Shown one piece after another: positions 7,144 to 38,171 of a stretch of 64,000 nucleotides of DNA. Source of the stretch: a virus. Under the pieces are notes generated by a model. That model saw only the letters and a program-made list of their open reading frames with translations. It did no database searches and had not been told where the DNA came from. A program made the position numbers and the translations under genes. Every line of letters starts with the position of its first letter. The stretch's first letter is position 1. The stretch is from positions 54,269 through 118,268 of the IMG/VR virus record IMGVR_UViG_3300042882_001046; one strand, given 5' to 3'.

Positions 7144-9621
7144 ATGAAGTATTTTCTTTTATTTTTATTGCTACTTCCAACATTAGCAATTGGACAAATA
7201 ACCGTAAACGGTTTAACAAAATCAAAATCCGAAAACATATATTTTTCACATATAAGTTTTAAACACTCAGACGGTGCCACATATTCAACAATTTCAAATG
7301 AAAACGCGGAATATAAATTAAACCTTAAATCTGGTTTATATACAATAAAAGCGTCATACATTGGATATAAAGAATTCACAAAAGAATTAAATGTAACGTC
7401 CGACTTAACCTTTGATATAATATTTGAAGAAACTGAAACTCAGTTGTCAGAAGTTGTTGTAAGGGCGGCTCCACAAAAAGTAACCGAAGCATCAATTGTT
7501 AGGTCAATACGAAATAATAATGTCGTATCCGATGGACTATCAATTGAATTTATTAAGAAAACTCCTGACAGAAACGTTGGTGACGCACTTAAAAGAGTTG
7601 GTGGGGTAACCATCCAAAACGATAAATTTGTATTGGTAAGAGGTTTGGCAGACCGTTATAATTCTGCATTATTAAATAAAACCCCACTACCGTCAACTGA
7701 ACCAGATAAAAGAGCGTTTTCTTTTGACATAATCCCAACTTCTTTAATTGACAACATTATTGTTGCTAAATCATCGTCAGCAAATTTGCCTGGTGATTGG
7801 AGTGGGGGATTAGTTCAAATAACAACAAAAGAAGTTTCTGATAAATTTTTTAATCTGTCATTGGGAAGTGGTTGGGGTTCGGTTTCAACCTTTAGAGATT
7901 TTAAGTTAGTTCAAGCTACCGATTTCCCTTCCACATTCCCTTCAACTTATAGATACCGTATATCATCAAACGGAGATAAAAGGGCGTATACTAAATTAAT
8001 TGGTAATCCATCAGTTGAACAGACTAAATCAACCCCTAATTTAAATGGAGGATTATCATTTGGTCACGCAAATGGAAAATGGAATTCATTATTTAGTTCT
8101 ACAATTAGAAATTCATATACACTAAACAATATTGAAAGAAAAGATTATCAATCATCAACAGAGTTAGCTTATGACTATAAAGATGTTTTATTTACAAAAA
8201 GATTTTCAACAAACAGTTTGTTTAATTTAACTTACTTGGGTGAAAATAGATACAGTTGGAAAACTTTAGTAAACTACCAAATTGAAGATTCATATCTAAA
8301 CCGTAATGGCGATAATTTTGATAACGTTCAGAATGTTTTAACAACGTCTTCGAATCATGTTAACAACGTTGTAATTAGTTCTCAATTTGACGGTAAAATT
8401 AAAACATTAAATTTTAATTTAGGATACAATTATACGTTTAGAGAACAACCAGATTATAGGATTAATCCAATCACAAAATCATTAGGTGTTAACGAACCTT
8501 ACGCAACTGCGTGGAGAGACACATATCGTTTTTGGAGTGTAATGGATGAAAACTCATTTAACGGTAACATAAATAAAGAACTCAATAATATTAAAATTGG
8601 TGGTGGGTACATTAAAAGGTTTAGAGGTTTTAACGCTAGAATATTTCGTTATCTATCAACAGACATGATGGATGAAATAACAAACAACACCGACAGATAT
8701 ACTGCCGATTTTGATTTGGGGTCTCTTTACTCGATGTATGAAAACGAATTTGGTAAATGGAAAATAAATGGTGGAATAAGAGGTGAATATAATTTATTTA
8801 ATGTTCAAACCGCAGATTTTAGTGGTACGGAAGTGAATGTTAACAGAAAATATTTAGACCTTTTACCTTCGTTAAATCTCTCATACAACGAAGAAAAAAC
8901 AAAGTATAGATTCTCAGTAAGTAAAACATTGGCAAGACCTGAATTCAGAGAAGTTGCTAATTTTGCTTATTATGATTTTGTAAGAAATGCTCAAATATTG
9001 GGAAATTCAAAGTTAGAAAAATCTGACATATATAATTTAGACCTTAAATACGAATGGTACCCAAAGACAGGTGAAAACATTTCGGTTTCTTTATTTGGTA
9101 AAAATTTCATTAAACCAATTGAACAAATTGTTGCAGACGGCTCAGTTCCTTCAAATCTTCTTTTAACTTACACAAACCCTAATTCAGCAATCTTATACGG
9201 TATTGAATTTGAAGTTCGTAAAAAGATAAGTGATTGGTTTGATGTTTATACAAATGCTTCGGTAATGAATTCAGAAGTAGAAGTTAATGGTATCAAAAGA
9301 CAATTACAGGGTCAATCAAACTATGTTTTAAACGGAGGAGTAAACATACATAAAAAGAAAAACACCCTTAATTTAACTTATAATAGAGTTGGTGATAGAA
9401 TATCATCTGTAGGGTTTCAGGGGTATCCTGATATATTCGAAAATAGTAGAGATGTATTAGACATTACATTCTTACATAAACTTTCAAAAGGAGAAATAAA
9501 ATTGGCAATAGGTGATGTATTTGCTCAACCATCAATTTATTACCAAAAGGTACAAAACCGAAATCTAATAAAAATAAACAATGAGCAAACAATTTCATTA
9601 ACATTAAATCTAACATTATGA
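7144..9621 (+). CDS. TonB-dependent outer-membrane receptor (Bacteroidota type)
   Basis: Signal peptide, carboxypeptidase-regulatory-like N-domain, plug (VRGLADRYN...FSFDIIPTSLID), barrel motifs LARPEFRE and GNSKLEKSDIYNLDLKYEWY. Confidence 0.9.
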   Translation: MKYFLLFLLLLPTLAIGQITVNGLTKSKSENIYFSHISFKHSDGATYSTISNENAEYKLNLKSGLYTIKASYIGYKEFTKELNVTSDLTFDIIFEETETQLSEVVVRAAPQKVTEASIVRSIRNNNVVSDGLSIEFIKKTPDRNVGDALKRVGGVTIQNDKFVLVRGLADRYNSALLNKTPLPSTEPDKRAFSFDIIPTSLIDNIIVAKSSSANLPGDWSGGLVQITTKEVSDKFFNLSLGSGWGSVSTFRDFKLVQATDFPSTFPSTYRYRISSNGDKRAYTKLIGNPSVEQTKSTPNLNGGLSFGHANGKWNSLFSSTIRNSYTLNNIERKDYQSSTELAYDYKDVLFTKRFSTNSLFNLTYLGENRYSWKTLVNYQIEDSYLNRNGDNFDNVQNVLTTSSNHVNNVVISSQFDGKIKTLNFNLGYNYTFREQPDYRINPITKSLGVNEPYATAWRDTYRFWSVMDENSFNGNINKELNNIKIGGGYIKRFRGFNARIFRYLSTDMMDEITNNTDRYTADFDLGSLYSMYENEFGKWKINGGIRGEYNLFNVQTADFSGTEVNVNRKYLDLLPSLNLSYNEEKTKYRFSVSKTLARPEFREVANFAYYDFVRNAQILGNSKLEKSDIYNLDLKYEWYPKTGENISVSLFGKNFIKPIEQIVADGSVPSNLLLTYTNPNSAILYGIEFEVRKKISDWFDVYTNASVMNSEVEVNGIKRQLQGQSNYVLNGGVNIHKKKNTLNLTYNRVGDRISSVGFQGYPDIFENSRDVLDITFLHKLSKGEIKLAIGDVFAQPSIYYQKVQNRNLIKINNEQTISLTLNLTL

Positions 9622-11263: not shown

Positions 11264-12748
11264 ATGAAATTCATGTCAATTCTTATATTAGAAGGTAGAA
11301 AAGAAGACCTAAAGAAAAAATACTCAAACAAGTTTGATGAAGAAACATTAAACTGGATTTTGAATATTTCCGACCTTGTAGATTTCAATCACAAATACAC
11401 TGACTTTATTTTAAAGGCTTTAGACCCAAATTCAGATATTGATATGAATGTTGATATTGCCGTTGGGTTAATACAAGATTTTGACAAATATCAATCTCAA
11501 TTAAATAAGAAAGATATTAATCAATATAATACTTTTTCTGAATTAGAAGGAGCTTTATTACCATTCCATGAAAAAGAGAAAGAAAAAGAATTAGAAGGTC
11601 AATCTAAAAAAATCTATGAAAAAGGAGATTTTGTGGTGATTCAACCAAAAACTGAAGAAGCTTCTTGTAAGTATGGCTCAAACACTAAGTGGTGTGTTAC
11701 ATCAAAAGGTTCAGGTCATTTTGGTAGATATACCTCAGGTCGTCAATCGTTATATTTTATTATCAACAAAGCCAAATCCACAAACAAAAATTATTCAAAA
11801 GTTGCAATCCATTTTGATGATGAAGGGTTTATGAGATATTGGGATGCTCAAGATTCACCAATGAGTCAAAGAGAAATTGATGTATTTGAATATGCATTTC
11901 CTGAAATGATTGAGTCAATTAAAAATGACTATAAGGTTTACAAGGGGTCAATGACAGACAGATTTTTGATAGAAACTTTTGATAAAGTGGGTGAGAATTC
12001 TGTTGAAGCTAAAAATTACTTAAATTCTAATTATAATTTAACAACTTATATAAGAGGGTTCCAAAACATCCTCGATTTAGGTTTTGGACATTCCGAAGCC
12101 CGCTTATCAGTTTCTTTAAAATCGGACACAGAAAATAAATTAATTGACGAATATCAAGTTTTTATTACGTACAAAAGTAAAGATGATAGAACGTTCTCTG
12201 CCAGCATAGGGTTTATGGGGAATGATGAGGTTGCGGGTGATGATTTTGAGGACCTTGGTCTTGAAGGGTGGGGAATTGATTCAACATACTATCTTGGTAA
12301 AACCCCCGCAGAAACCGCTGAAGGTGTTAGAAGACACATTGTAACAAGAGTATTAGACCACATTAAAAACAATCCAAAATTACTTCAAAAAGTTGCAGGT
12401 TCTTCAAGAGTTTTTAGGTCTACCTATGGTTACAAATTTGGTAAAAATAAAGGTTGGGTTAAAAAACTTGTTGATTATTTGGATAAAGGAAAGATAGGAA
12501 CAAAACTAGATTTCCTCACAGATATTGGTTATTTAGAAAAAATAACTCAAGACGGTAAAACACAATTTAGAAAAAGTAAACTTGGTTTTCTATATAATCC
12601 TCGAGACTTAAGAGGTCAACATTCTTCATTCTTTGCCGCAGCAAAAAATGCTGGAATTTTAAATTATAGAAAAATAGGAAAAGATTATTTCCTCATCAAA
12701 GGTCCAAATTTTGAGGCCTTCAAAGAAGGTAAGCTCAAGGCTCTTTAG
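11264..12748 (+). CDS. Hypothetical phage protein, paralogous in part to 51082..52098
   Basis: Shared block VIQPKTEEASCKYGSNTKWC...LYFIINK; TATTTATT 3 nt before ATG 11264. Confidence 0.7.
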   Translation: MKFMSILILEGRKEDLKKKYSNKFDEETLNWILNISDLVDFNHKYTDFILKALDPNSDIDMNVDIAVGLIQDFDKYQSQLNKKDINQYNTFSELEGALLPFHEKEKEKELEGQSKKIYEKGDFVVIQPKTEEASCKYGSNTKWCVTSKGSGHFGRYTSGRQSLYFIINKAKSTNKNYSKVAIHFDDEGFMRYWDAQDSPMSQREIDVFEYAFPEMIESIKNDYKVYKGSMTDRFLIETFDKVGENSVEAKNYLNSNYNLTTYIRGFQNILDLGFGHSEARLSVSLKSDTENKLIDEYQVFITYKSKDDRTFSASIGFMGNDEVAGDDFEDLGLEGWGIDSTYYLGKTPAETAEGVRRHIVTRVLDHIKNNPKLLQKVAGSSRVFRSTYGYKFGKNKGWVKKLVDYLDKGKIGTKLDFLTDIGYLEKITQDGKTQFRKSKLGFLYNPRDLRGQHSSFFAAAKNAGILNYRKIGKDYFLIKGPNFEAFKEGKLKAL

Positions 12749-17723: not shown

Positions 17724-17915
17724 TTATTTTACTTCTTCTACTTTCTCAACATCAGCTTTAACTGAATCAACTGCCACTGCAGATGAATCAACTTTAACTG
17801 AATCAACAGCTACTGCAGTTGAATCAACCGCTTCTGTAGATTTACCAGTCCCGTTTCCGCAAGATGCTAACATTGTTGTTGCTGCAATTGCAAATAGTGC
17901 TACGATTTTTTTCAT
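17724..17915 (-). CDS. Small Bacteroidota-type lipoprotein with AVDS/KVDS repeats
   Basis: MKKIVALFAIAATTMLASC lipobox; repeated D-S motifs; ATG 17915 preferred to track start. Confidence 0.75.
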   Translation of the reverse strand: MKKIVALFAIAATTMLASCGNGTGKSTEAVDSTAVAVDSVKVDSSAVAVDSVKADVEKVEEVK

Positions 17916-18031
17916 GTTTTTTTGTTTTTTGTTTGTTATGTATTTTATTAACTTATGAACCATAAATATATGAAGAATTATCTTATGTGTCAATTATTTT
18001 AAAAGTTTTTTTTTGTTAAAATTTTGTTATG

Positions 18032-18117
18032 CGGAGAGTGTTGGGCTCGAACCAACGCGGCTGTTACACCCTACCTGTTTAGCAAACAGGCCCCTTCACC
18101 AACTTGGGTAACCCTCC
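18032..18117 (-). tRNA. trnS: tRNA-Ser(GCT)
   Basis: Cloverleaf; anticodon arm CCTGT-TTGCTAA-ACAGG; long variable arm. Confidence 0.93.
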
Positions 18118-18456
18118 TTATTGTAATAATTGTATTAAATAATAAGATAATTTATATCCTGTAAACGCACCAAGAGCTGATGGTAATGGGAAAACAATCA
18201 TTTTACCTAAATCTGTAACGTATTTTGGTCTGTTAACAATCTTACCCATATAAAAGTAATATGTTAAGTACCCTAATAACACCGCTAAATCCGTTCTTGT
18301 TGCAATGAATACAACAATAGTCGCACCAATAAAACCAAAAGTAAAATTATCTCTAACTCCTTCCCAAATTTCAAATGTGGTAGCCTCTTTGTACTCTTTA
18401 ACAATTTTTTTAAACTTTGTTCTGTTTGTCTGTTTTTTTTTAATTTGTGATTCCAT
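18118..18456 (-). CDS. Membrane protein inside the tRNA array
   Basis: 112-aa ORF with hydrophobic helices filling the gap between two tRNAs. Confidence 0.65.
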   Translation of the reverse strand: MESQIKKKQTNRTKFKKIVKEYKEATTFEIWEGVRDNFTFGFIGATIVVFIATRTDLAVLLGYLTYYFYMGKIVNRPKYVTDLGKMIVFPLPSALGAFTGYKLSYYLIQLLQ

Positions 18457-18457
18457 G

Positions 18458-18531
18458 TTGGAATAGATGGATTCGAACCATCGACATCTACCGTATCAGG
18501 ATAGCGCTCTAACCAACTGAGCTATATTCCA
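18458..18531 (-). tRNA. trnI: tRNA-Ile(GAT)
   Basis: Cloverleaf; CTATC-CTGATAC-GGTAG. Confidence 0.92.
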
Positions 18532-18536
18532 ATGTG

Positions 18537-18706
18537 CTGTAAGGGAAGGAGTCGAACCTTCAAGAGGAGATTCAATTGATAACACAACGCTTGCAAGCTG
18601 GTGGTCTACCCCATATTATCAATCTATTTCTTTGTCCCCGCCCCCGAGACAGGAGGGTGCGTATGCCAAGGTCATAACTGAGACAACCTAATTTCGCCAC
18701 CTTACA
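18537..18706 (-). ncRNA. Oversized (170 nt) tRNA-like RNA with insertions in D-loop and variable arm
   Basis: Perfect acceptor TGTAAGG/CCTTACA, T-arm GAAGG-TTCGACT-CCTTC, Leu-like D-arm GCG...CGC. Confidence 0.75.
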
Positions 18707-18711
18707 ATTTG

Positions 18712-18798
18712 CGGAGGAACAGGGATTCGAACCCCAGATACCCTTTCGAGTATGCCAGTTTTCAAGACTGGTGCAATCAACCGCTCTGCCATTCCTCC
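18712..18798 (-). tRNA. trnS: tRNA-Ser(TGA)
   Basis: Cloverleaf; CCAGT-CTTGAAA-ACTGG; long variable arm. Confidence 0.93.
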
Positions 18799-18802
18799 AA
18801 AT

Positions 18803-18902
18803 AAAAGTGTTTTGGTCAACCACTCGCTACCCACCGCAGTATGACGATTCCCCCTGTGGTCATCGTACTTACGCCTAAGCCTTGTCCGTTGTAAACACTT
18901 TT
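18803..18902 (-). ncRNA. Structured inter-tRNA element
   Basis: 10-bp closing stem AAAAGTGTTT/AAACACTTTT. Confidence 0.45.
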
Positions 18903-18903
18903 G

Positions 18904-18977
18904 GGTGACTAACGGGAATCGAACCCGTGACAACTTGAACCACAATCAAGCGCTCTACCTACTGAGCTATAGACACC
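18904..18977 (-). tRNA. trnH: tRNA-His(GTG)
   Basis: G-1:C73; CTTGA-TTGTGGT-TCAAG. Confidence 0.9.
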
Positions 18978-18982
18978 ATATG

Positions 18983-19052
18983 TTGCGTGTATGAGGTTCG
19001 AACTCACTTGACCTTCCTTATGAGAGAAAGTTCTTTCCCACTAAGCCACGCA
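18983..19052 (-). tRNA. trnM: Atypical tRNA (CAT), probably elongator Met
   Basis: CTCATAA loop and normal T-arm; 6-bp acceptor and shortened acceptor/D junction. Confidence 0.6.
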
Positions 19053-19058
19053 GTTTAG

Positions 19059-19130
19059 TGGTTTTATTAGGACTCGAACCCAAACTCCGAAATCCGTAGT
19101 TTCGTGTGCTATCCATTACACCATAAAACC
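19059..19130 (-). tRNA. trnR: tRNA-Arg(ACG)
   Basis: CGAAA-CTACGGA-TTTCG. Confidence 0.92.
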
Positions 19131-19134
19131 GTTG

Positions 19135-19205
19135 TTGTCCCTCAGGGATTCGAACCCCAACTGGATGGACCAAAACCACCTGTACTACCGTTATACTAAA
19201 GGACA
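19135..19205 (-). tRNA. trnQ: tRNA-Gln(TTG)
   Basis: GGTGG-TTTTGGT-CCATC. Confidence 0.92.
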
Positions 19206-19213
19206 CTTTAGTG

Positions 19214-19293
19214 TGGGAGTGGAGGGATTCGAACCCCCAATGTCGACGACCACAGATTTACAGTCTGCTAAGCAACCGTTGCTCAACACTCCC
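19214..19293 (-). tRNA. trnY: tRNA-Tyr(GTA)
   Basis: GCAGA-CTGTAAA-TCTGT; long variable arm. Confidence 0.92.
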
Positions 19294-19296
19294 AAG

Positions 19297-19477
19297 TTAG
19301 GAAAGGAGAAGATGGTCGAGTGGACATCTCCTTTTACGATTGGCATTACTCAGGTGTATTTCTCCCAACTCCGATGATACCGACCAAAATACACTCTCAT
19401 GTCATAGGTACCACCATTCCCCAATCAACCTATAAAACGATAATAGAATGTCCCAGCCGTCTCCTTCTCTTATCTAA
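19297..19477 (-). ncRNA. 181-nt structured RNA with probable pseudoknot, family unknown
   Basis: 5'/3' purine-pyrimidine closing helix, GGACAT/ATGTCC, ATAGGT/ACCTAT, GTGTATTT/AAATACAC, loop GATTGG complementary to distal CCAATC. Confidence 0.6.
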
Positions 19478-19526
19478 CATACACTAACAGCTAAATACGG
19501 CTTGACTGATTATACTGTATGTTTTG

Positions 19527-19600
19527 CACGGGTGGAGAGGTTCGAACTCCCGACAACTGGTTTTGGAGACCAGTACTCTACCAAACTGAGCTACACCCGC
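19527..19600 (-). tRNA. trnW: tRNA-Trp(CCA)
   Basis: CTGGT-CTCCAAA-ACCAG. Confidence 0.93.
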
Positions 19601-19605
19601 TTATA

Positions 19606-19848
19606 TTACCTATACTTCCTGATAATCTTCATTATCTCTCCGATATCTGTAAGTTCCATCTTTTGTCCGACACGGATTGGATAGAATGCCACGGTAAATC
19701 CGTGGTTTCCACAAAAACGTTCGGTTACTCTTTTTCCATTAACTTTTTCAAGATAAATCCATGGAATGTTACCTGCGAATTCACATTTGATTCCCAGTTT
19801 GTCCATTCTTCTTCTGAAATCGTTTAATACTCTTGTGTCTGTTTCCAT
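19606..19848 (-). CDS. Hypothetical protein inside the tRNA array
   Basis: 80-aa ORF between trnC and trnW. Confidence 0.65.
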   Translation of the reverse strand: METDTRVLNDFRRRMDKLGIKCEFAGNIPWIYLEKVNGKRVTERFCGNHGFTVAFYPIRVGQKMELTDIGEIMKIIRKYR

Positions 19849-19862
19849 AAGTTTATTTTTTG

Positions 19863-19934
19863 AGGTCGAACCCAGAATCGAACTGGGGTAATTAGTTTTG
19901 CAGACTAACGCCTAAGCCGCTCGGCCACCCGACC
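19863..19934 (-). tRNA. trnC: tRNA-Cys(GCA)
   Basis: TTAGT-CTGCAAA-ACTAA; U73. Confidence 0.93.
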
Positions 19935-19940
19935 ATTGTT

Positions 19941-20174
19941 TTATTTAACCATATCAAAGTTAATCATATTCTCTGACATTAATTCACGAAGTTCATTTCT
20001 TATTTCCTGATATGCGTCATACTTGTCCTGTGGTAAATCATCGGAAGCATATTTAGTTTTCGCTCTCAATGATTGGTCCAAATCCCAAAGTATTGACCAC
20101 ATCTTCATTCCTTTAGTTGCCAAGTCGAAATCTTGTTGGTCCTCAGGTAAATTAAATTCTAAAACAGCTTTCAT
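19941..20174 (-). CDS. Hypothetical phage protein
   Basis: MKAVLEFNLPEDQQDF...; ATG 20174 preferred to track start. Confidence 0.65.
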   Translation of the reverse strand: MKAVLEFNLPEDQQDFDLATKGMKMWSILWDLDQSLRAKTKYASDDLPQDKYDAYQEIRNELRELMSENMINFDMVK

Positions 20175-20352
20175 TTTTTTTCTCTTTATATTTTTTACAT
20201 CTCTTTTTTGGTACTTCAACGTAATATGAACCCATAAACGATGAGAATACACCAACGTAGTTGGACCCAACCTCTTTTACATCATGGAGCACTGAACCCT
20301 CAAAAAGGTTGAAGAAGATGTCAGTACAGTCTTTTTTTGTTACAACTTTCAT
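20152..20352 (-). CDS. Hypothetical protein
   Basis: TATATTTG (20357-20364) 4 nt before ATG 20352. Confidence 0.6.
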   Translation of the reverse strand: MKVVTKKDCTDIFFNLFEGSVLHDVKEVGSNYVGVFSSFMGSYYVEVPKKRCKKYKEKKNESCFRI

Positions 20353-20390
20353 ATTACAAATATACACAATTTTATTTAATTTTTCTAATG

Positions 20391-20464
20391 TGACCCCGCC
20401 GAGATTCGAACTCGGGACTCCTTCATTAAAAGTGAAGTGCTCTAGCCAACTGAGCTACGAAGTC
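20391..20464 (-). tRNA. trnK: tRNA-Lys(TTT)
   Basis: CTTCA-CTTTTAA-TGAAG. Confidence 0.93.
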
Positions 20465-20470
20465 TTATTG

Positions 20471-20543
20471 TGGTAACGGTCAGAATCGAACTGACGACAC
20501 CTTGGTCTTCAGCCAAGTGCTCTACCAACTGAGCTACATCACC
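20471..20543 (-). tRNA. trnF: tRNA-Phe(GAA)
   Basis: CTTGG-CTGAAGA-CCAAG. Confidence 0.93.
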
Positions 20544-20548
20544 ATTTG

Positions 20549-20621
20549 TAGTCCCTGTAGGAATCGAACCTACGACATCTTGCATGTAAAACAAGCGCTC
20601 TCCCAACTGAGCTAAAGGACT
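20549..20621 (-). tRNA. trnV: tRNA-Val(TAC)
   Basis: CTTGT-TTTACAT-GCAAG. Confidence 0.92.
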
Positions 20622-20626
20622 GTTTG

Positions 20627-20700
20627 TACTCCGTACGGGGCTCGAACCCGTAATCTTCACCGTGAAAGGGTGACGACTTAACCAATTTGTCCAACGGAGC
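20627..20700 (-). tRNA. trnE: tRNA-Glu(TTC)
   Basis: TCACC-CTTTCAC-GGTGA. Confidence 0.93.
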
Positions 20701-20754
20701 AATTATTCAACAAAAATACGACCAATAAATCAAAGAACCAAAAAACATCAAAAT

Positions 20755-20787
20755 AAAAAACCCCGAACCTTTTTACGAGTTCGGGGT
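20755..20787 (-). terminator. Attenuator-type terminator upstream of tRNA array A
   Basis: ACCCCGAAC-N10-GTTCGGGGT followed by T-run; 5' arm complementary to AGTTCGG in leader ORF. Confidence 0.85.
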
Positions 20788-20820
20788 ATATAAAAAATTT
20801 AGTTTATTAATCTAAAAAAA

Positions 20821-20919
20821 TTATCCTATTTTGACATCCGAACTACATAATAGCATACGCTCATACCAACAAATCGATTGTTGTGTACTAAAGACCATAT
20901 GTTTAAATGTAGTTTTCAT
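20821..20919 (-). CDS. Leader peptide A (32 aa) MKTTFKHMVFSTQQSICWYERMLLCSSDVKIG
   Basis: Read by hand; sits between a consensus promoter and a terminator; codon content mirrors downstream tRNAs. Confidence 0.85.
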   Translation of the reverse strand: MKTTFKHMVFSTQQSICWYERMLLCSSDVKIG

Positions 20920-20937
20920 TGTTTCTTATATATAGTA

Positions 20938-20968
20938 CAAAGATACAAAAAAATCTTTGGGTGTCAAA
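20938..20968 (-). promoter_or_regulatory. Bacteroidota primary-sigma promoter for leader A
   Basis: TTTG(20968-20965)-N19-TATCTTTG(20945-20938). Confidence 0.8.
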
Positions 20969-20993
20969 TATTTTTTTTAACTATTTATAAAAG

Positions 20994-21413
20994 ATGAAAA
21001 CATTGAGACAAATCATTAAGGAAGAATTATTACTTGAAAAAAGAATCACTCAAGTTAATTCGTCTTTAGAAGTAGTATTCCTATTTGACGTAAACAGGAC
21101 CACTCACGCCTTTGATAGAGACACAAGAGATGATATTGAAGGGTATAATGTAAGACCGATTGTTAACGCTGAAATTAGAGAGATTATCAGTACAGTAAAA
21201 AAAGATATTGCCGAAAAAATAGTTTCAAGGGAAATTAACCCTGAAGTAGATTTTGTTGTAAAGTCCTTAAAATGGGAATTAGCCATGGCAATAACTCCTG
21301 TTCATATTGGAGGAACTTATTGGCAATTAATTATCAAAACAGTATTCAGAGAATCCAAATACAACCCTTTTAGAGTGGGTGAAAACCAATTGGTGATTTA
21401 CTCAGACATTTAA
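20994..21413 (+). CDS. Hypothetical, probable virion protein
   Basis: TATTTATA 4 nt before ATG; N-terminal IIKEELLLE. Confidence 0.65.
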   Translation: MKTLRQIIKEELLLEKRITQVNSSLEVVFLFDVNRTTHAFDRDTRDDIEGYNVRPIVNAEIREIISTVKKDIAEKIVSREINPEVDFVVKSLKWELAMAITPVHIGGTYWQLIIKTVFRESKYNPFRVGENQLVIYSDI

Positions 21414-21504
21414 AAAAAAAAAGGGTAACACTAGTATCTGAATCGTTCCCGTGTTACCCAGTTTGTAATTGAGCTTGTGTATCTAAATCGTGCTCCTCAA
21501 TCAC
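21412..21504 (-). ncRNA. Two-hairpin small RNA with duplicated loop motif ACGATTYAGATAC
   Basis: TATCTTTG (21509-21516); stems GTGATTGAG/CTCAATTAC and GGGTAACAC/GTGTTACCC; 11-nt U tail. Confidence 0.75.
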
Positions 21505-21543
21505 AATACAAAGATACAAAAATATTTCGTACCACAAAAAATA

Positions 21544-22254
21544 TTATCCCTGAATATTAAAATTAATCACACATCTGTGAGTTTTTCCGTAAAAAGGTTT
21601 AACCGAATGAACAATATCGTAAGGCCAAATTATTAACATCCCTTTCTTTGGTCTAATAAAGTAAGACATTCCCCTAACGTGAAATGTAAATACCCCACTA
21701 TATGGATGGTCATCAACTGGGTCTCCGTCAGATAGATAATAACCACCAGAAAAGTTTAAAGTTGTTTCTTCATTTGGTTGCCATCTACAATGATTATGAG
21801 CGTTATGTCCACGACCTTCAGTTGGATTATAATATTGCATCCAACTCTCAGTAATCATTGGTTTTCTGTTGTGTTCAAATCCAAGTTTGTCCAGCATCTC
21901 CATATAACCCAATTCTACCCTTTTTTTAATTTTCTTAACACATTCCTCATCTATATTAAGAAAATCGTTTGGCGGGGTCCAAAATCGACTACCAATGGGG
22001 TTATGTTCCGTTGGTTCCACCCACATGTCTTGCCTATTGTAGTTTACTTGATATGTAGATTGTCTTTGTTCGTCGTATTGTTCTGGTAACTCTTGACCCA
22101 TCAATTTTTGTTGGTCGGTTAGAGCATTAAAACCAAAATTATAAACTTCGTCTTGAAGTTCGTCATCTGTGAATACTTTCATAAACACAGGAATAGGTGC
22201 AAGATGAAAAAGATTCTCCTGACTTGTTTTAACTAATGGATTTTTTACGTACAT
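21544..22254 (-). CDS. Putative 2OG-Fe(II) oxygenase
   Basis: HNAHNH, SGGYYL, IWPYDIVHSVKP, RCVINFN. Confidence 0.7.
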   Translation of the reverse strand: MYVKNPLVKTSQENLFHLAPIPVFMKVFTDDELQDEVYNFGFNALTDQQKLMGQELPEQYDEQRQSTYQVNYNRQDMWVEPTEHNPIGSRFWTPPNDFLNIDEECVKKIKKRVELGYMEMLDKLGFEHNRKPMITESWMQYYNPTEGRGHNAHNHCRWQPNEETTLNFSGGYYLSDGDPVDDHPYSGVFTFHVRGMSYFIRPKKGMLIIWPYDIVHSVKPFYGKTHRCVINFNIQG

Positions 22255-22267
22255 AATTTAAATCTTG

Positions 22268-22348
22268 TACCCCAAGAGAGACTCGAACTCTCACGACCGA
22301 AGTCATTGGTTCCTAAGACCAACGCGGCTACCGTTACGCCATCGGGGT
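22268..22348 (-). tRNA. trnL: tRNA-Leu(TAG)
   Basis: TTGGT-CTTAGGA-ACCAA; variable arm. Confidence 0.92.
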
Positions 22349-22351
22349 GTG

Positions 22352-22443
22352 TCATTATCGCTTCAGCCACATCGGGAAAGGCGCCTCTCCCGCGTTGTTT
22401 AAGTGTGTAACTTGCGCCGTATCTCACTGAGGTACGATAATGA
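22352..22443 (-). ncRNA. Structured inter-tRNA element
   Basis: 9-bp closing stem TCATTATCG/CGATAATGA; inner hairpin CGGGAGAG-GCGC-CTTTCCCG. Confidence 0.5.
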
Positions 22444-22446
22444 TTG

Positions 22447-22520
<74 letters not shown>

Positions 22521-22524
22521 ATTG

Positions 22525-22610
22525 TACCGAGGGAGGGACTCGAACCCTCACGGCCGTTTACTGACCAAGGGATTTTAAGTCCCTCGTGGCTACCATTACA
22601 CCACCTCGGC
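22525..22610 (-). tRNA. trnL: tRNA-Leu(TAA)
   Basis: AGGGA-CTTAAAA-TCCCT; own promoter TATATTTG at 22620-22627. Confidence 0.93.
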
Positions 22611-22648
22611 ATTGTCTTACAAATATAACCTTTATGGAATCATAAATC

Positions 22649-22683
22649 AAAAAAAACCCCAAACTTTTTTTTTAGTTTGGGGT
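22649..22683 (-). terminator. Intrinsic terminator
   Basis: CCCCAAACT/AGTTTGGGG followed by T8. Confidence 0.75.
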
Positions 22684-22709
22684 CCTATTATATAAAGTTA
22701 TTACCTTTT

Positions 22710-23441
22710 TTATTGAGCATCAAACTCTTCTTCCCATAACGTATCAGAAGAATTTTCTTCTGTATTATAAGTGTGATTTAATTCAATTGTCATGTCATTG
22801 AAATTAAATACGAACTCTCCGTCTGACCCTTCATTAATTTCCCAACCACCATAATGACTTTCAAGTTGATTATAACACCAATCTTCAATTGTTGACGGAA
22901 CTGAATCACCATTTTCTTCAAATGAACTTTCAATATAACCAGAATCCCCCGAACCATTATATCTTAGAGTTAATATTCCATCTTGTGGAATTTCTAAATC
23001 AGATAGAACCCCATCTTTTTCCCATTCTTCAAAAATTTCTTGACCTTCTTCTTCTGACCATTCAGTCCCACTAGCGTCTCCTCTATCATACCAAGACCAA
23101 TAATGGTTAAATGAAATGTCTTTGTTTGCAGAATTAATACTAATCTCAAACTTTTGCCATGACATCGCATCAATATCTGGTGTCTCACTACTATATAATT
23201 CTTGGTCAGACGCATACTTCGTAATTTTTTGAAGTATCGGTATCAACCCTGACGGAACGTCCGCTCTCCAGTTATTGGAGAAATGTGTCATTTGATTCCA
23301 ATCTATATTATTATAGTTAAGTGTATCACCATAATCATCCATCTCGAATTCAAACTCACCGACTTCCATTCCGAGAGAGCTCAAATAATTACAAACTCTT
23401 CTCAGGTATTGTTTTTCTTCTGTTGTTAAAAGTTTTTCCAT
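22710..23441 (-). CDS. Acidic protein with DUF6878-like C-terminal region
   Basis: YNGSGDSGYIE and GGWEINEGSDGEF motifs (family name from memory). Confidence 0.55.
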   Translation of the reverse strand: MEKLLTTEEKQYLRRVCNYLSSLGMEVGEFEFEMDDYGDTLNYNNIDWNQMTHFSNNWRADVPSGLIPILQKITKYASDQELYSSETPDIDAMSWQKFEISINSANKDISFNHYWSWYDRGDASGTEWSEEEGQEIFEEWEKDGVLSDLEIPQDGILTLRYNGSGDSGYIESSFEENGDSVPSTIEDWCYNQLESHYGGWEINEGSDGEFVFNFNDMTIELNHTYNTEENSSDTLWEEEFDAQ

Positions 23442-23452
23442 ATAAATAAATA

Positions 23453-23806
23453 TCAGTCTTCAAACTCTAATTTCATTGTTTTTAACATCCATTGGGGTCT
23501 TTGATTTGACGAGATGTTACTAATCCACTCTTTGGCTGAAGGTATGTAATTATTACAATCTTCTTTTACGTGTTGTTCTCCAACATATCGGGTATAAACT
23601 GTTTTTCCGTCTGAGTTTAAGAACTCAGTTCCAAATCTTTTTTCCATTTCAAAAATTCCTTCACTATGATGTCTAAACATTCTATGAAGAGAATCTCCAA
23701 ACCAAGATTTGGTTTCATCTAACCATTCATGTAAATGAATGTAATCCTCAGGTTTTCCTCCAAACTTTTTGGCGGATGATTTTGCATGTAAATTTGGATG
23801 TGCCAT
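23453..23806 (-). CDS. DUF6915-like His-rich protein
   Basis: MAHPNLHAKSSAKKFGG...HRMFRHHSEGIF...HVKEDC (family name from memory). Confidence 0.65.
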   Translation of the reverse strand: MAHPNLHAKSSAKKFGGKPEDYIHLHEWLDETKSWFGDSLHRMFRHHSEGIFEMEKRFGTEFLNSDGKTVYTRYVGEQHVKEDCNNYIPSAKEWISNISSNQRPQWMLKTMKLEFED

Positions 23807-23808
23807 GA

Positions 23809-24042
23809 TTATTTAATTTGTGAGTTGTTTCTTCTTGCTTCCTCAGCTTCTTTGTAAACCCTAACCCATGTTAAAAATACATCAATAGGTGCTAAAATCC
23901 AACACATAATAATTAACGCCATACTCTCAAGACCTGGAGATATTCCAAGACCACCTGACATAACATCTCTGTTCCATTTTCTAATTGACATGATTACGCA
24001 GTAAATGAAACAAACAACGTAATACGACCAAAATAATTGCAT
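23809..24042 (-). CDS. Small membrane protein
   Basis: Two hydrophobic helices; ATG 24042 (track start overlaps trnA). Confidence 0.6.
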   Translation of the reverse strand: MQLFWSYYVVCFIYCVIMSIRKWNRDVMSGGLGISPGLESMALIIMCWILAPIDVFLTWVRVYKEAEEARRNNSQIK

Positions 24043-24057
24043 AAATAAAAGTTTTAG

Positions 24058-24130
24058 TGGAGAATGAGGGAATCGAACCCACGACAACTTGAATGCAAAT
24101 CAAGCGCTCTACCAACTGAGCTAATTCCCC
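24058..24130 (-). tRNA. trnA: tRNA-Ala(TGC)
   Basis: G3:U70; CTTGA-TTTGCAT-TCAAG. Confidence 0.93.
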
Positions 24131-24136
24131 TGTTTG

Positions 24137-24209
24137 AGCCTCCTGTCGGAATCGAACCAACGACCTACTGATTACAAATCAGTTGCTCTACCTGCTGAGC
24201 TAAGGAGGC
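24137..24209 (-). tRNA. trnT: tRNA-Thr(TGT)
   Basis: ACTGA-TTTGTAA-TCAGT. Confidence 0.93.
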
Positions 24210-24259
24210 ATTTGTGGGTGTATGCTCATCACATACTCATGGGTTCCCACAACCCGTTG

Positions 24260-24332
24260 AGCGGAAGACCAGGCTCGAACTGGCCACCCCCGACTTGGAA
24301 GGACGGTGCTCTACCAAATGAGCTACTTCCGC
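24260..24332 (-). tRNA. trnG: tRNA-Gly(TCC)
   Basis: CCGTC-CTTCCAA-GTCGG (one T-T mismatch); U73. Confidence 0.9.
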
Positions 24333-24337
24333 AATTT

Positions 24338-24413
24338 TGGCGGTCCCGACGGGATTCGAACCCGTATCTCGCACCGTGACAGGGTGGAATTGTAACCATT
24401 CAACCACGGGACC
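24338..24413 (-). tRNA. trnD: tRNA-Asp(GTC)
   Basis: CTGTCAC loop; the only tRNA here with encoded CCA. Confidence 0.92.
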
Positions 24414-24441
24414 GTGTGTGGGGAGTTTCACCCCAAACTTT

Positions 24442-24933
24442 TTAATTTGTTAAGATGTGTTGATGTTCTCCGATTACTCGTTTTAAACTACTAACATATC
24501 TCTTATCAGACGCATATACCCTTCCGAGTAGTGCAAGATACTGATTTTTTGTCAAATCGTCTTTACCTTTTAACATATAATCTTGCCATAAAAAGTAATC
24601 ATATACGCTAAGGTTCCAATCTGTATATTTTGAGTATCCGCTCTGAGTTTTACCAACTGAAGACGTTTCTCTTTTTGTTGGAACTCTCATTCCAAACAGA
24701 TTGTTTGCCGTTTTGAACAATTTTGATGTAAATGCTCCTGACTCTAACACAGCTTGTGCAAACACAATATCAGGAAATTTTATACCAAACTTAATTATCT
24801 GCTCGTACAATTCTTCTTTTGTCAACCTATCATCTTGTGTCTGATAAGTTGTTTGTACTTGCTTCTCTTGTGCTTTTGTTGTCATTGTTCCTAACAATAA
24901 CAACACAGTCAATAAGAATGTTTTTAACTTCAT
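24442..24933 (-). CDS. Glucosaminidase-domain (GH73-like) peptidoglycan hydrolase with signal peptide
   Basis: AQAVLESG, NNLFGM, YASDKRY motifs. Confidence 0.8.
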   Translation of the reverse strand: MKLKTFLLTVLLLLGTMTTKAQEKQVQTTYQTQDDRLTKEELYEQIIKFGIKFPDIVFAQAVLESGAFTSKLFKTANNLFGMRVPTKRETSSVGKTQSGYSKYTDWNLSVYDYFLWQDYMLKGKDDLTKNQYLALLGRVYASDKRYVSSLKRVIGEHQHILTN

Positions 24934-25013
24934 TTCTTTCTTTTTGTCTGTTTATGCTTCAGGATTACTCCATCCACGATACCACAACATTGGAAATTTT
25001 CCACCCACCTCAG

Positions 25014-25085
25014 CTGCTCCACCTGGGCTCGAACCAGGATAAAAGGATTAACAGTCCTCCGTAATAACCATTATACGATAGAGCA
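25014..25085 (-). tRNA. trnN: tRNA-Asn(GTT)
   Basis: GAGGA-CTGTTAA-TCCTT. Confidence 0.92.
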
Positions 25086-25122
25086 AAATTATAATCAAAT
25101 TTTCCAACAAAGGAAACTTTTG

Positions 25123-25196
25123 TCGGGATGGCTGGATTCGAACCAACGGCCTCCACGTCCCAAACGTGGCGCGATACCTGACTACGCTACATCCCG
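25123..25196 (-). tRNA. trnP: tRNA-Pro(TGG)
   Basis: CCACG-TTTGGGA-CGTGG. Confidence 0.93.
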
Positions 25197-25201
25197 TACA
25201 T

Positions 25202-25232
25202 AAAAAAACCCTGAAGTATTAGTTCAGGGTTT
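25202..25232 (-). terminator. Attenuator-type terminator 5 nt upstream of trnP
   Basis: AAACCCTGAA-N7-TTCAGGGTTT-TTTT; 5' arm and loop complementary to AGTTCAG in leader ORF. Confidence 0.88.
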
Positions 25233-25254
25233 AGATAATTGGCTATAATATTGT

Positions 25255-25353
25255 TTACCAACCACTCGCTTCTGAACTTACGCAAATAGTGCCCGCATCC
25301 CCATTAGGAGTTGTCGGTGTGTCTAAATTCGTATTTGTGTTCATAGTTTTCAT
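25255..25353 (-). CDS. Leader peptide B (32 aa) MKTMNTNTNLDTPTTPNGDAGTICVSSEASGW
   Basis: Read by hand; TATTTATT at 25367-25374; codon content mirrors downstream tRNAs. Confidence 0.85.
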   Translation of the reverse strand: MKTMNTNTNLDTPTTPNGDAGTICVSSEASGW

Positions 25354-25398
25354 AGTGCAATATTACAATAAATATATTTAAAAACCAAAAAATAAATA

Positions 25399-26181
25399 TT
25401 AGTTACTAAAACCTCTCAAATAAACATCATTTGTCATATTGAAATTAATCCTCATTGATGAGTTTGGATAAGTACTATAAACTCTATATTGACCCTGTGG
25501 AATTACATTCCCTGTATAATTAATCAAGTATGATGACAACTGAGTATTTGTGTTCAACACTGTTTGACTATTGTTAGCACTTGACACTATTCTTGTACCG
25601 TTTTTCGCATAATAACCAATTCTAGTTTGTCTTTTTGTATCATTATTCATTGCCGAGACAGGAATCAAAACTAAAACCCAAGCGTTATCATTAACAGTAT
25701 TTTTAGATATTTTTACTGTTGTAAAATTATATGCCATTTTAGGGTTACCGTGTTCATCAACTCCACCACTTACTTGTGGTATGTCAGCCTGAATAACTTG
25801 TGGTAACACACCATTAGTCCAAAATGGCATGTTTAAATAATTGTTTAAATCTCGGTAATTGGTATTTTGAATACTCACCATTGTCCAACAAGAGTAAAAT
25901 GGAACGCTTGTAGATTGTGGGTTTCTTGGAACTGAGTTTTTAAGGTAATTAACAATTAATGTTGTTTTAGCTTGCTTTTCAATAAAAACATACGCCTTCA
26001 AATTAGGTGTTGAACTTGTCGTAACCCTTAAATTAGGGTTCGTACTTGAAGTTGAGTTAAGTTCTTGGGATTGCTCAATTTTAGTTTTTTCGAAGTCTAC
26101 TCCAGTGATGTCTTCTTTAGAACAAGACACAACAAATACCGATAAGGTAAGGAATGATAATAATAATTGTTTGATTTTCAT
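25399..26181 (-). CDS. Hypothetical lipoprotein
   Basis: Lipobox VVSC followed by SKED. Confidence 0.7.
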   Translation of the reverse strand: MKIKQLLLSFLTLSVFVVSCSKEDITGVDFEKTKIEQSQELNSTSSTNPNLRVTTSSTPNLKAYVFIEKQAKTTLIVNYLKNSVPRNPQSTSVPFYSCWTMVSIQNTNYRDLNNYLNMPFWTNGVLPQVIQADIPQVSGGVDEHGNPKMAYNFTTVKISKNTVNDNAWVLVLIPVSAMNNDTKRQTRIGYYAKNGTRIVSSANNSQTVLNTNTQLSSYLINYTGNVIPQGQYRVYSTYPNSSMRINFNMTNDVYLRGFSN

Positions 26182-26191
26182 GATTGTTTGT

Positions 26192-26473
26192 TTAAATGTA
26201 TTTTTTAAAAATTGTTTCTAAGGTGTCTTCATCTTCCCTACTTATAACATGAAATTTTTGAGATAACTTATCCATTTTCTCTAAAAATTCATCTTCTAAA
26301 ATAGATGTTTTTGGTTTACCATTTTTATCAGTTTGTATTTGAGACAACACTGATTTAGGTAAATGGTTTTCTTCAACTAACCCTTCAATTAATTCTTTAA
26401 TTTCTCTTGGGTCACAGGCCGTAACAAATTCATACGGGTCAATGTCGATTTCTTCTACACAAAATTCAGGCAT
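26192..26473 (-). CDS. Hypothetical protein
   Basis: 93-aa ORF in operon-like spacing. Confidence 0.65.
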   Translation of the reverse strand: MPEFCVEEIDIDPYEFVTACDPREIKELIEGLVEENHLPKSVLSQIQTDKNGKPKTSILEDEFLEKMDKLSQKFHVISREDEDTLETIFKKYI

Positions 26474-26498
26474 AATTATTTTTTTTTTAATAGTTTAG

Positions 26499-26572
26499 TG
26501 GACCAGCCTGGGCTCGAACCAGGGACCTTCACATTATGAGTGTGTTGCTCTAACCAACTGAGCTACAAGTCC
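26499..26572 (-). tRNA. trnI: tRNA(CAT), probably Ile2 (lysidine type)
   Basis: CTCATAA loop; Ile-like acceptor and D-arm; own promoter TATCTTTG at 26582-26589. Confidence 0.8.
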
Positions 26573-26637
26573 AATTTGATACAAAGATAAACAATAAATT
26601 TGATTTTGGAAATTTTTTTGTGATATTTATAGATATT

Positions 26638-26739
26638 ATGACAGACAAAAATATAACGTGTCTTTTGGGAACTAACCAAAAATATGAGAACTCGGGCGAT
26701 TTGAGACGTGGAAAACCTCGAACCATAAACTATTGCTAA
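26638..26739 (+). CDS. Candidate 33-aa ORF MTDKNITCLLGTNQKYENSGDLRRGKPRTINYC
   Basis: TATTTATA 6 nt before ATG; terminator 26756-26783 downstream. Confidence 0.45.
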   Translation: MTDKNITCLLGTNQKYENSGDLRRGKPRTINYC

Positions 26740-26822: not shown

Positions 26823-27314
26823 GTGATGAGCACTGTATTGGTATTAAATTTTGACTACACTCCGTTAAACACAACTAGTGTTTGGAGGGGGTTTGTGTTA
26901 GTTGATAAAGGAAAGGCAGAAATTGTAAAATCAGACGAAAATCCGATTGTTGCAGGATATAATACTTATGTACGTCCACTTATTATTAGATTACTGAAAT
27001 ATATCAAACATCGTTCAAGGACATTAAGGGCAAACAGAAGTCGAATATATAAAAGAGACGGATATGAGTGTGTTTATTGTGGGTCAAAAAAAGAGTTGAC
27101 CTTAGACCACGTATTACCCAAATCAAGAGGTGGGACAAATGAATGGACTAACCTTGTTACGTCTTGTATGAAATGTAATCGTAAAAAAGCAGATAGAACA
27201 CCAGATGAGGCCAAAATGAACATGAAATCTAAACCATACATTCCACAAATTATGTACGAAGACAAAACTTTATTGAATGTTTGGAATGCGTATCAAGAAT
27301 CATTCATTTCTTAA
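26823..27314 (+). CDS. HNH endonuclease (McrA-like)
   Basis: RDGYECVYCG...TLDHVLPKSRGG...NLVTSCMKCNRKK. Confidence 0.92.
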   Translation: MMSTVLVLNFDYTPLNTTSVWRGFVLVDKGKAEIVKSDENPIVAGYNTYVRPLIIRLLKYIKHRSRTLRANRSRIYKRDGYECVYCGSKKELTLDHVLPKSRGGTNEWTNLVTSCMKCNRKKADRTPDEAKMNMKSKPYIPQIMYEDKTLLNVWNAYQESFIS

Positions 27315-37572: not shown

Positions 37573-38171
37573 TATCTAAGATTTGCCCCGCAAAACCAAG
37601 TAACCAATGATTTTCTAACACCTGATGTTAGTGGAGTTACTCTATGTAATAAAAACGAAGGGAAAAAAACCATTGTTCCCAATCCTTTTGGTACTTCAAT
37701 TATATTCCCACCTGGATTAATTTGTAATTGACCTCCTTCATATTCTTCTGGTGTTGATAATTGTAACACACAAGAAAGTTTTCTATTTGAAATGCCAGGA
37801 CCTAAATCAACATGCCAATCGTAATGACCACCATCTCCATAGTATTTTGTATATTGTAATCCGTCTCCAAATCCCCATATATCAAAGTTCCACATTTCTT
37901 TATTGGCAATAATAGCATATTCCGCCAATTTGTCATAAATGAATGCGGTTTCTGGTGTTTCATTCAACCAAGCAATCTCACTTATTCTATAATCGGAAAC
38001 ATCCTGACTTTGGTCGTGACCCACTGTTGTTGCGGCTTGTTTAGGGTACGATTCCCCTATTTCAATTATTTTTTCAATTTCTTTAGGTGTAAATGCGTTT
38101 GTGAAATAATAATAATTTAAGTGGTTTACGTTATTTCTCTGTTCGTCTAAAAATTTGTTTGCTGCTGACAT
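37572..38171 (-). CDS. 2OG-Fe(II) oxygenase (prolyl-4-hydroxylase/PKHD-like)
   Basis: HYDWHVD, RKLSCVLQLS, YEGG, FPSFLLHRVTP, RKSLV; ATG 38171. Confidence 0.88.
   Translation of the reverse strand: MSAANKFLDEQRNNVNHLNYYYFTNAFTPKEIEKIIEIGESYPKQAATTVGHDQSQDVSDYRISEIAWLNETPETAFIYDKLAEYAIIANKEMWNFDIWGFGDGLQYTKYYGDGGHYDWHVDLGPGISNRKLSCVLQLSTPEEYEGGQLQINPGGNIIEVPKGLGTMVFFPSFLLHRVTPLTSGVRKSLVTWFCGANLR

Follow-up and report, generated by a model that had tools for sequence, protein, structure and literature searches.

Likely leader-peptide attenuators of transfer RNA arrays in a family of uncultured freshwater phages

Large phages carry near-complete sets of transfer RNA (tRNA) genes, for which a plausible use is the replacement of degraded or cleaved host tRNAs; in work on such tRNA supplements, a demand-sensing control of the arrays has to our knowledge not been described. 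The question is raised here by 64,000 nucleotides (nt) of viral DNA, positions 54,269 to 118,268 of the 118-kb record IMGVR_UViG_3300042882_001046 (CheckV completeness 39%). This whole stretch is called the window below. Why does a short open reading frame (ORF) with a terminator behind it stand before a tRNA array, and why do its codons name the amino acids of the very tRNAs that follow? The window is AT-rich and contains 23 above-threshold tRNAs and one transfer-messenger RNA (tmRNA), as called with ARAGORN and Rfam. Its closest named DNA relatives are Flavobacterium phages, which are distant, Flavobacterium phage immuto being the nearest. Two of its arrays, A and B, follow a leader ORF of this kind (Table 1). 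In our judgement each unit is likely to be a multivalent ribosome-mediated (leader-peptide) transcription attenuator of the phage tRNA block behind it, as its anatomy, the statistics and the covariation suggest.

Two leaders and the arrays behind them

Unit A begins with a promoter-like site that is conserved among relatives and lies 18 nt upstream of the leader ATG. A 36-nt AU-rich spacer separates the leader ORF from the terminator hairpin, and the tRNA array follows. ARAGORN and Rfam agreed on the order Glu, Val, Phe, Lys, Cys, Trp, Tyr, Gln, Arg(acg), His, Ser(tga), Ile(gat) and Ser(gct). The next strong minus-strand terminator past the array was found at 17701-17678. An earlier reading of the same DNA by a model that saw only the letters, called the sequence-only reading here, had counted 14 tRNAs. 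Thirteen of them stood, in the order claimed; the fourteenth, a Met tRNA between Arg and His, did not reach the threshold. This tRNA-like element with a CAT anticodon (18983-19052, minus strand) scored 24.7 bits against the Rfam cut-off of 29 and was called by ARAGORN at a lowered threshold only. Relatives carry a good CAT tRNA at the position of the degenerate element, and leader A retains two ATG sensor codons; the element may be decaying.

The codon listing of leader A bore out that each of the 13 amino acids of the array, Met included, occurs among residues 5-22, with Thr12 as the sole foreign residue. Arg is encoded by CGT, Ser by AGT and TCG, and codons 23-24 are CTA TTA; Pro, Asn and Ala are absent, while Asp28 and Gly32 stand at or past the antiterminator. 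All of these codon details had been read correctly. The proposed tie between CTA TTA and a separate cluster of Leu tRNAs was not upheld: the corresponding codons of close relatives encode Arg-Asp, His-Asp or Gln-Ser, codons 23-24 abut the 3' strand of the helix formed by regions 1 and 2 of the switch, and the Leu cluster is a unit of its own with a terminator and a promoter. The observation that Cys-Trp-Tyr in the leader follows the gene order is true locally, but gene order is no general rule (mean Kendall tau 0.05, p = 0.24).

Chance expectations were computed from the amino-acid usage of the 46 long ORFs of the window. For codons 5-22 of leader A, 17 of 18 belonged to the set of array A and 13 of 13 amino acids were covered (p = 5e-7). 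With codons 2-25, a range fixed independently of the result, p was 4e-5, and with the whole ORF 3e-4. At the level of codons, the anticodons of the array could read 16 of the 18 under strict wobble and 17 of the 18 under extended wobble, against a background of 0.48-0.54 (p ~3e-4).

Leader B gave an equally close match, which no other single finding in the window surpasses in strength. Residues 5-22 consist in 17 of 18 cases of Asn, Thr, Asp, Pro, Gly or Ala, which are the six tRNAs of array B; all six were covered, with p < 5e-7, and p = 3e-5 for codons 2-25. When each leader was compared with the array of the other unit as a cross-control, the matches fell to 1/18 and 0/18. Chance is excluded for both leader matches. 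Apart from the first three residues and a Cys-x-Ser-Ser tail the two leader ORFs share nothing, and this common start and tail is explained by RNA structure.

Small ORFs lie between the tRNAs of array A, all on the minus strand: 18118-18456 (112 residues), 19606-19848 (80), 19941-20174 (77) and 20152-20352 (66). The 112-residue ORF, the only one of the four compared with Pfam, had no match. Within array B a 163-residue, secreted-looking glucosaminidase (24442-24933, minus strand; Pfam PF01832) is encoded; lying within the array, this gene would share a transcript with the tRNAs whenever readthrough occurs. Further on, ahead of the next terminator, come DUF6915, DUF6878 and a 77-residue ORF.

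Table 1. Coordinates of the two leader units and of the separate Leu-Arg-Leu unit in the window
Feature	Position	Strand	Description
Promoter-like site, leader A	20938..20968	-	TTTG, 19 nt, TATCTTTG; Bacteroidota -33/-7 type
Leader ORF A	20821..20919	-	32 codons + TAA; putative sensor, codons 5-22
Switch A, region 1	20907..20914	-	Codons 2-5; predicted to pair with 20841-20848 (minimum free energy folds)
Switch A, region 2	20838..20848	-	AGTTCGG (20844-20838), complementary to CCGAACT in terminator 5' arm; putative antiterminator
Intrinsic terminator A, regions 3 + 4	20750..20787	-	GC-rich 10-pair stem 20787-20760, then T tract
Second promoter-like site	20711..20742	-	TTTG, 20 nt, TATTTTTG; past terminator A, 10 nt before tRNA-Glu
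tRNA array A	18031..20700	-	13 tRNAs, sub-threshold CAT element, four small ORFs
Leader ORF B	25255..25353	-	32 codons + stop; paralogous to unit A
Switch B, region 2	25272..25278	-	AGTTCAG, complementary to CTGAACT in terminator B
Intrinsic terminator B	25199..25232	-	Stem 25232-25206 and T tract ending beside tRNA-Pro
tRNA array B	24057..25196	-	Pro, Asn, 163-residue glucosaminidase ORF, Asp, Gly, Thr, Ala
Leu(taa)-Arg(tct)-Leu(tag) unit	22267..22686	-	Terminator 22686-22653, promoter match 22651-22620, tRNAs 22610-22267; leaderless

The switch and its family

Near the end of both leader ORFs a heptamer is the exact complement of the 5' arm of the terminator, and the difference between units A and B is compensatory. 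The stop codon stands 14 nt past this segment, region 2, in both units. With region 1 near the ORF start and the terminator arms as regions 3 and 4, the four segments are in the classical arrangement, in which 1 is like 3 and 2 is like 4. In minimum free energy (MFE) folds region 1 of unit A spans codons 2-5, and that of unit B is formed by ATG-AAC in codons 4-5. Membership of region 1 accounts for the foreign Thr at codons 3-4 of leader A. The helix between regions 1 and 2 (helix 1:2) has an energy of -8.0 kcal/mol in unit A (shuffle p = 0.07).

A search pattern composed of the antiterminator core and the terminator was applied to the window, to viral contigs and to prokaryote genomes. The window contained exactly two matches, units A and B, with 0 expected. 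In viral contigs at least 115 stretches matched, at least 110 of them related cassettes, and 67 distinct leaders were among the matches listed; the family counts below refer to these listed matches in viral contigs. Nearly all of them showed an ORF of 25-37 codons with a tRNA array directly behind it, and ten loci found independently through a neighbouring 139-residue protein had the same layout. Among 87 distinct sequences, 95% had an ORF that opens with ATG, spans region 2, ends before the terminator and is 22 codons or longer (median 32), compared with 22% of shuffles. The stop codon lies 2-27 nt past region 2 across the family, most commonly 14 nt; in one clade it stands directly before region 2. 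In unit B, as in several other clades, the first tRNA follows the terminator closely, after a spacer of 7-21 nt. Two distinct matches, L026 and L044 (= L109), were set aside as chance, since they had neither leader nor tRNAs.

Since the pattern had required most of helices 2:3 and 3:4 beforehand, only the positions left free count as evidence of covariation. At the R:Y pair of helix 2:3 (7-8 bp), the 47 aligned sequences had AU in 28 cases, GC in 15 and GU in 4, with no mismatch, and the pair flanking the core was AU in 11, GC in 11, UA in 8, GU in 3 and other in 10. Double changes in this helix occupied 34 cells against 12.7 +/- 2.9 in shuffles, and 0 of 500 shuffles reached 34; sliding the helix by one column lowered pairing from 97% to 43-54%. 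The forbidden A-C combination was seen once among 77 distinct cores, where 17 were expected. The base just past the 5' arm pairs with region 2 in 33/43 sequences and with the 3' side of the terminator in 15/43. In 22 sequences a U-G wobble of the terminator corresponds to an A-U pair in the antiterminator, and therefore region 2 is more than a copy of region 4. The terminator helix itself had 93% of its cells paired in the 47 sequences. The reading frame of the GTTCRG motif of region 2 varies among leaders, all three frames being used; what is conserved is thus the RNA and not the peptide. Region 2 paired with the ORF start in 67/67 MFE folds, and the median duplex energies were -8.9 kcal/mol for helix 1:2, the weakest, -10.7 for 2:3 and -15.7 for 3:4.

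The same pattern gave 25 matches in 596 Gb of prokaryote genomes. Two of these were tRNA cassettes, both on phage-like contigs binned into metagenome-assembled genomes (MAGs). One of the matches (L139:4430-4581, plus strand), on a 375-kb contig binned as a Bacteroidota MAG, has a leader of 24 codons, in which His, Ser, Tyr and Leu are abundant, ahead of tRNAs for His, Ser, Ser, Tyr, Leu, Leu and Leu; the genes nearby, for a LAGLIDADG endonuclease, a class I aminoacyl-tRNA synthetase and an adenylosuccinate synthetase, suggest that the contig comes from a giant phage and was binned among bacteria. In Anaerolineae MAGs (L148:1994-2131, L141, L150 and L154) we observed short ORFs with an Arg run (Arg-Arg-Ile-Arg-Arg-Arg-Arg) and a terminator. 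The one in L148 stands directly upstream of argininosuccinate synthase and lyase, and these ORFs look like an arginine leader-peptide attenuator in Chloroflexota.

The same design in a different sequence family was found in Cellulophaga phage phi38:1 (NC_021796.1), whose host is Cellulophaga baltica. Residues 5-17 of its 29-codon ORF (37987-38076) are solely Leu, His, Gln, Glu, Pro and Arg; a terminator comes next, and then tRNAs for Pro, Glu, Gln, His, Leu and Arg. The control of phage tRNAs is not discussed in the transcriptome paper on this phage (PMC5335546). Flavobacterium phage immuto has four tRNAs, and neither a terminator nor a leader cassette was found near them.

Leader content and array content

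Leader composition followed array content across the family. Fifteen leaders that are less than 55% identical to one another and stand before complete arrays each matched their own array, with p from 0.02 to < 3e-6. When the arrays were permuted among these 15 leaders p was <= 1e-5, and within the A-like type alone p was <= 3e-5. One leader (L031:10198-10296) names 13 of 13 amino acids for the array Pro, Pro, Lys, Cys, Trp, Leu, Val, Tyr, Ala, Gln, Met, His, Arg and Ile; its sensor lacks Glu and Phe and has a single Ser, at the final codon ahead of region 2, whereas Glu, Phe and Ser all mark array A of the window. Another (L113:6706-6804) names the first 14 isotypes of its own array, and a third (L023) 11 of 11. 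The explanation of the match by chance composition, or as a by-product of shared descent, is so improbable as to be negligible. Close relatives do share leader and array by descent, so that the independent observations are well below 67; against this stand the p values for codons 2-25 of both leaders and the permutation of the diverged leaders over their arrays, and descent alone cannot equate the composition of a peptide with a list of tRNAs.

The correspondence extends to single tRNAs, codon boxes and unit boundaries. Relatives of unit B without tRNA-Ala (its absence checked at E <= 1) have GDGGT in place of the GDAGT of the window, and a clade without tRNA-Ser(tga) is also without the TCG sensor codon. 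Where Arg(acg) is present the leader has a CGN codon in 10 cases and lacks it in 0. AGR codons go with Arg(tct), AGY and TCN with two Ser tRNAs, and TTR and CTN with two Leu tRNAs. Behind ten distinct B-type leaders, which contain 2-5 Leu codons and one or more AGR codons, the Leu-Arg-Leu cluster is not preceded by a terminator. In the window type, whose leader B contains a single Leu codon and lacks AGR, a terminator lies ~45 nt upstream of the cluster. The viral contig L053 carries three cassettes (leader ORFs 11628-11732, 7592-7690 and 4935-5033, all minus strand), and the middle leader, rich in Leu and Arg, stands ahead of Arg(tct), Leu and Leu. The Leu-Arg-Leu cluster, leaderless in the window, thus owns an attenuator elsewhere.

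These observations also bear on whether a working attenuator could be sensing a general slowing of translation (starvation, host shut-off or a ribosome-targeting defence), with the codon list being secondary. Many different codons, each used once or twice, would integrate over much of the code, and leaders A and B jointly cover 19 amino acids, as such a sensor would favour. We nevertheless regard it as quite unlikely: two leaders in one genome that complement each other (cross-controls 1/18 and 0/18) would be needless, and leaders change along with single tRNAs gained or lost, with codon boxes and with the boundaries of units.

Codon choice within the sensors was also biased. For tRNAs with G34, His is encoded by CAT in 46 cases versus 4 (background 59%) and Tyr by TAT in 47 versus 3. 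For several tRNAs with U34 the G-ending codon is enriched: CCG accounts for 34/70 Pro codons versus 6% in the background, TCG for 27/45 Ser codons versus 10%, and GAG for 51% of Glu codons versus 21%. The sensor codons are thus shifted from phage usage towards wobble-read or rare codons, the direction expected of a stall sensor; the bias may instead partly serve internal hairpins.

Proposed mechanism, transcription of the arrays and significance

Taken as a leader-peptide attenuator, each unit would work as follows. Transcription would start from a host-type promoter, and the 32-codon ORF would be translated at once. Four segments would decide the outcome: region 1 (codons 2-6), region 2 (GTTCRG near the ORF end) and regions 3 and 4 (the terminator arms), region 2 being able to pair with either 1 or 3. 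The sensor of ~18 codons would hold one or two codons for each tRNA species of the unit. A ribosome slow anywhere in it would cover region 1 and leave region 2 free, helix 2:3 would form, and transcription would read through into the tRNAs. Under fast decoding the ribosome would run on to the stop codon, which lies 14 nt beyond region 2; region 2 would then be masked and the 3:4 terminator would form. With no translation helix 1:2 would form and 3:4 would again terminate. Such a device would sum the decoding times over codons served by the downstream tRNAs and provide feedback on tRNA supply. Ribosome stalling, its coupling to readthrough and the physiological trigger are the steps that we infer. 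The window also encodes a phage tmRNA (6242-6664, plus strand; Rfam 98.6 bits), with a tag of 21 residues ending in VVAA according to ARAGORN; a link between ribosome rescue and the stall-sensing attenuators of the same genome is conceivable.

Promoter-like sites of the Bacteroidota type (TTTG-N18-21-TAnnTTTG) numbered 18 in the window against 3.6 expected. The caveat of the sequence-only reading, that TAnnTTTG sites downstream of the terminator might act as promoters, was strengthened, since 20718-20711 belongs to a full two-box match; the other site, 20364-20357, has the -7 box only and is placed 4 nt upstream of the 66-residue ORF in array A. A further -7-like box within the array, 18343-18336, comes with a -33 box. 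The same -7 box, with 9-10 nt spacing, stands before the leaderless Leu cluster (a full two-box match) and before a lone Met tRNA (26572-26498). Many arrays, A included, are probably also transcribed independently of the switch. In unit A the post-terminator promoter would give basal expression, and the attenuator, which would add an on-demand part from the upstream promoter, would therefore probably boost the flux into the array and not gate it. In unit B only 7-9 nt separate the T run of the stem from tRNA-Pro, which leaves no room for a post-terminator promoter; unit B and the clades with spacers of 7-21 nt must consequently depend on readthrough. A full minus-strand promoter match at 21509-21538 points antisense into the conserved 139-residue gene (20994-21413, plus strand) and onward to leader A. 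Divergent from the lone Met tRNA is an HNH endonuclease gene (26826-27314, plus strand), in keeping with the frequent movement of mobile elements through the tRNA regions of phages.

Four metatranscriptome runs were compared with positions 17900-26700; the contigs are assembled, so that ends, strand and level are not shown and DNA carry-over is possible. Window-identical contigs from two studies spanned 20999-20741 and 20913-20724, thus covering the leader and terminator A, and stopped before tRNA-Glu. Window-identical contigs also covered some neighbouring ORFs, and the other matches were mostly tRNA pieces of other organisms.

The small ORF and hairpin could accordingly be an ordinary short transcription unit, with the arrays transcribed from their own TAnnTTTG promoters and the ORF having another tRNA-tied role, as a translated test message or a peptide acting in trans, and no control over transcription. 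The full promoter match past terminator A, the -7 box there in relatives and the same box at the same spacing before the leaderless Leu cluster and Met tRNA speak for it, and the ends of the RNA-library contigs before tRNA-Glu are a weak hint that fits efficient termination equally well. We think this explanation unlikely, however. A gap of 7-21 nt between terminator and tRNA leaves no promoter room in unit B and several clades, and a region 2 that covaries with the 5' arm would be purposeless in a plain terminator. The peptides are alike in composition and not in sequence, contrary to a function of the peptide, and leader content follows the position of the next terminator.

Several observations weigh against a leader-peptide attenuator. 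In the arrays, identical leaders stand before arrays that have lost tRNAs (L047 vs L099, L117 vs L023), and the leader of L088 lacks Trp with a tRNA-Trp behind it. In leader A the match is imperfect, Thr12 being foreign to the array; its composition is partly set by RNA structure, as with Thr codons 3-4 in region 1, and its Gln-Gln and Cys-Trp codons pair together in the MFE fold. Each sensor codon is present once or twice, unlike the codon runs of his, phe and leu leaders, so a shortage of a single tRNA may evoke only a small response. Unit B has a weak helix 1:2 (-5.9 kcal/mol, shuffle p = 0.25), and in the family this helix is individually significant against shuffles in only 54%. To these are added the full two-box match between terminator A and tRNA-Glu (20742-20711) and the post-terminator -7 box in 44/66 relatives, far over chance; arrays with such a promoter would not depend on readthrough. 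The attenuator interpretation, which the sequence-only reading had offered for unit A, has meanwhile gained support from the second leader, from the cassettes in viral contigs, from the tracking of arrays by leaders and from the covariation of helix 2:3.

Textbooks describe leader-peptide attenuation for operons of amino-acid biosynthesis and for a small number of other operons that encode proteins. Full-text literature searches that combined attenuation or leader peptides with phage tRNAs found no published account of leader-peptide attenuation of tRNA genes. No Rfam family other than tRNA and tmRNA reached the threshold in the window, and nothing was found on either leader at E <= 1. The curated Rfam Trp, His, Leu, Thr and Phe leaders gave no covariance-model match, and a T-box riboswitch was rejected, as no T-box model matched in the window or on the leaders (Rfam, E <= 1).

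The closest known counterparts are the multivalent leaders of enterobacteria, ilvGMEDA and ilvBN (Ile, Val and Leu codons) and thr (Thr and Ile), beside trpL, hisL, leuL and pheL. The phage units resemble the ilv and thr leaders in having a short leader ORF with codons for several amino acids, an intrinsic terminator and, as proposed, translation of the leader, mutually exclusive 1:2, 2:3 and 3:4 helices and readthrough on stalling. They differ in that a phage owns them and that they precede tRNA genes and not biosynthetic enzymes. Where those leaders hold runs of one to three amino acids, the phage sensor lists 6 to 14, once or twice each; where those respond to amino-acid supply, the signal that would make sense for the phage units is tRNA supply. 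The ORF of the phage units includes region 2, with the stop codon behind it, and Rfam showed no sequence relation of the units to these leaders. The pheM leader attenuator, which controls pheST (phenylalanyl-tRNA synthetase) in E. coli and reads the level of charged tRNA, is likewise leader-peptide attenuation of a gene of the translation apparatus, but it is cellular, senses one amino acid and regulates a synthetase and not tRNA genes. T-boxes bind uncharged tRNA directly and independently of translation, by a specifier loop and the T-box sequence. They too couple tRNA status to terminator readthrough through an antiterminator helix; the phage element, in contrast, is an ORF.

In these phages the logic of attenuation appears to control tRNA genes, with a leader that works as a checklist for as many as 14 tRNA species; the device is spread over a large family of uncultured freshwater phages. 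If this is true, it explains how tRNA arrays are regulated in large phages and provides a natural modular sensor of decoding speed at chosen codons. The long-debated purpose of phage tRNAs would become testable, because the leader states which shortages matter, and the leader-to-array rule could aid the annotation of transcription units and the spotting of tRNA gains and losses in metagenomic phages. More tentatively, and with some doubt on our part, the cassettes may be demand sensors for the loss of host tRNAs: specific tRNAs that are cleaved or degraded would slow the listed codons and switch on only that block, with leaders, arrays and boundaries co-evolving. Such loss could be caused by anticodon-nuclease defences or by the phage's own takeover, and the arrangement would possibly be a counter-defence circuit. 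If so, it would constitute phage-encoded, codon-resolved feedback control of tRNA supply.

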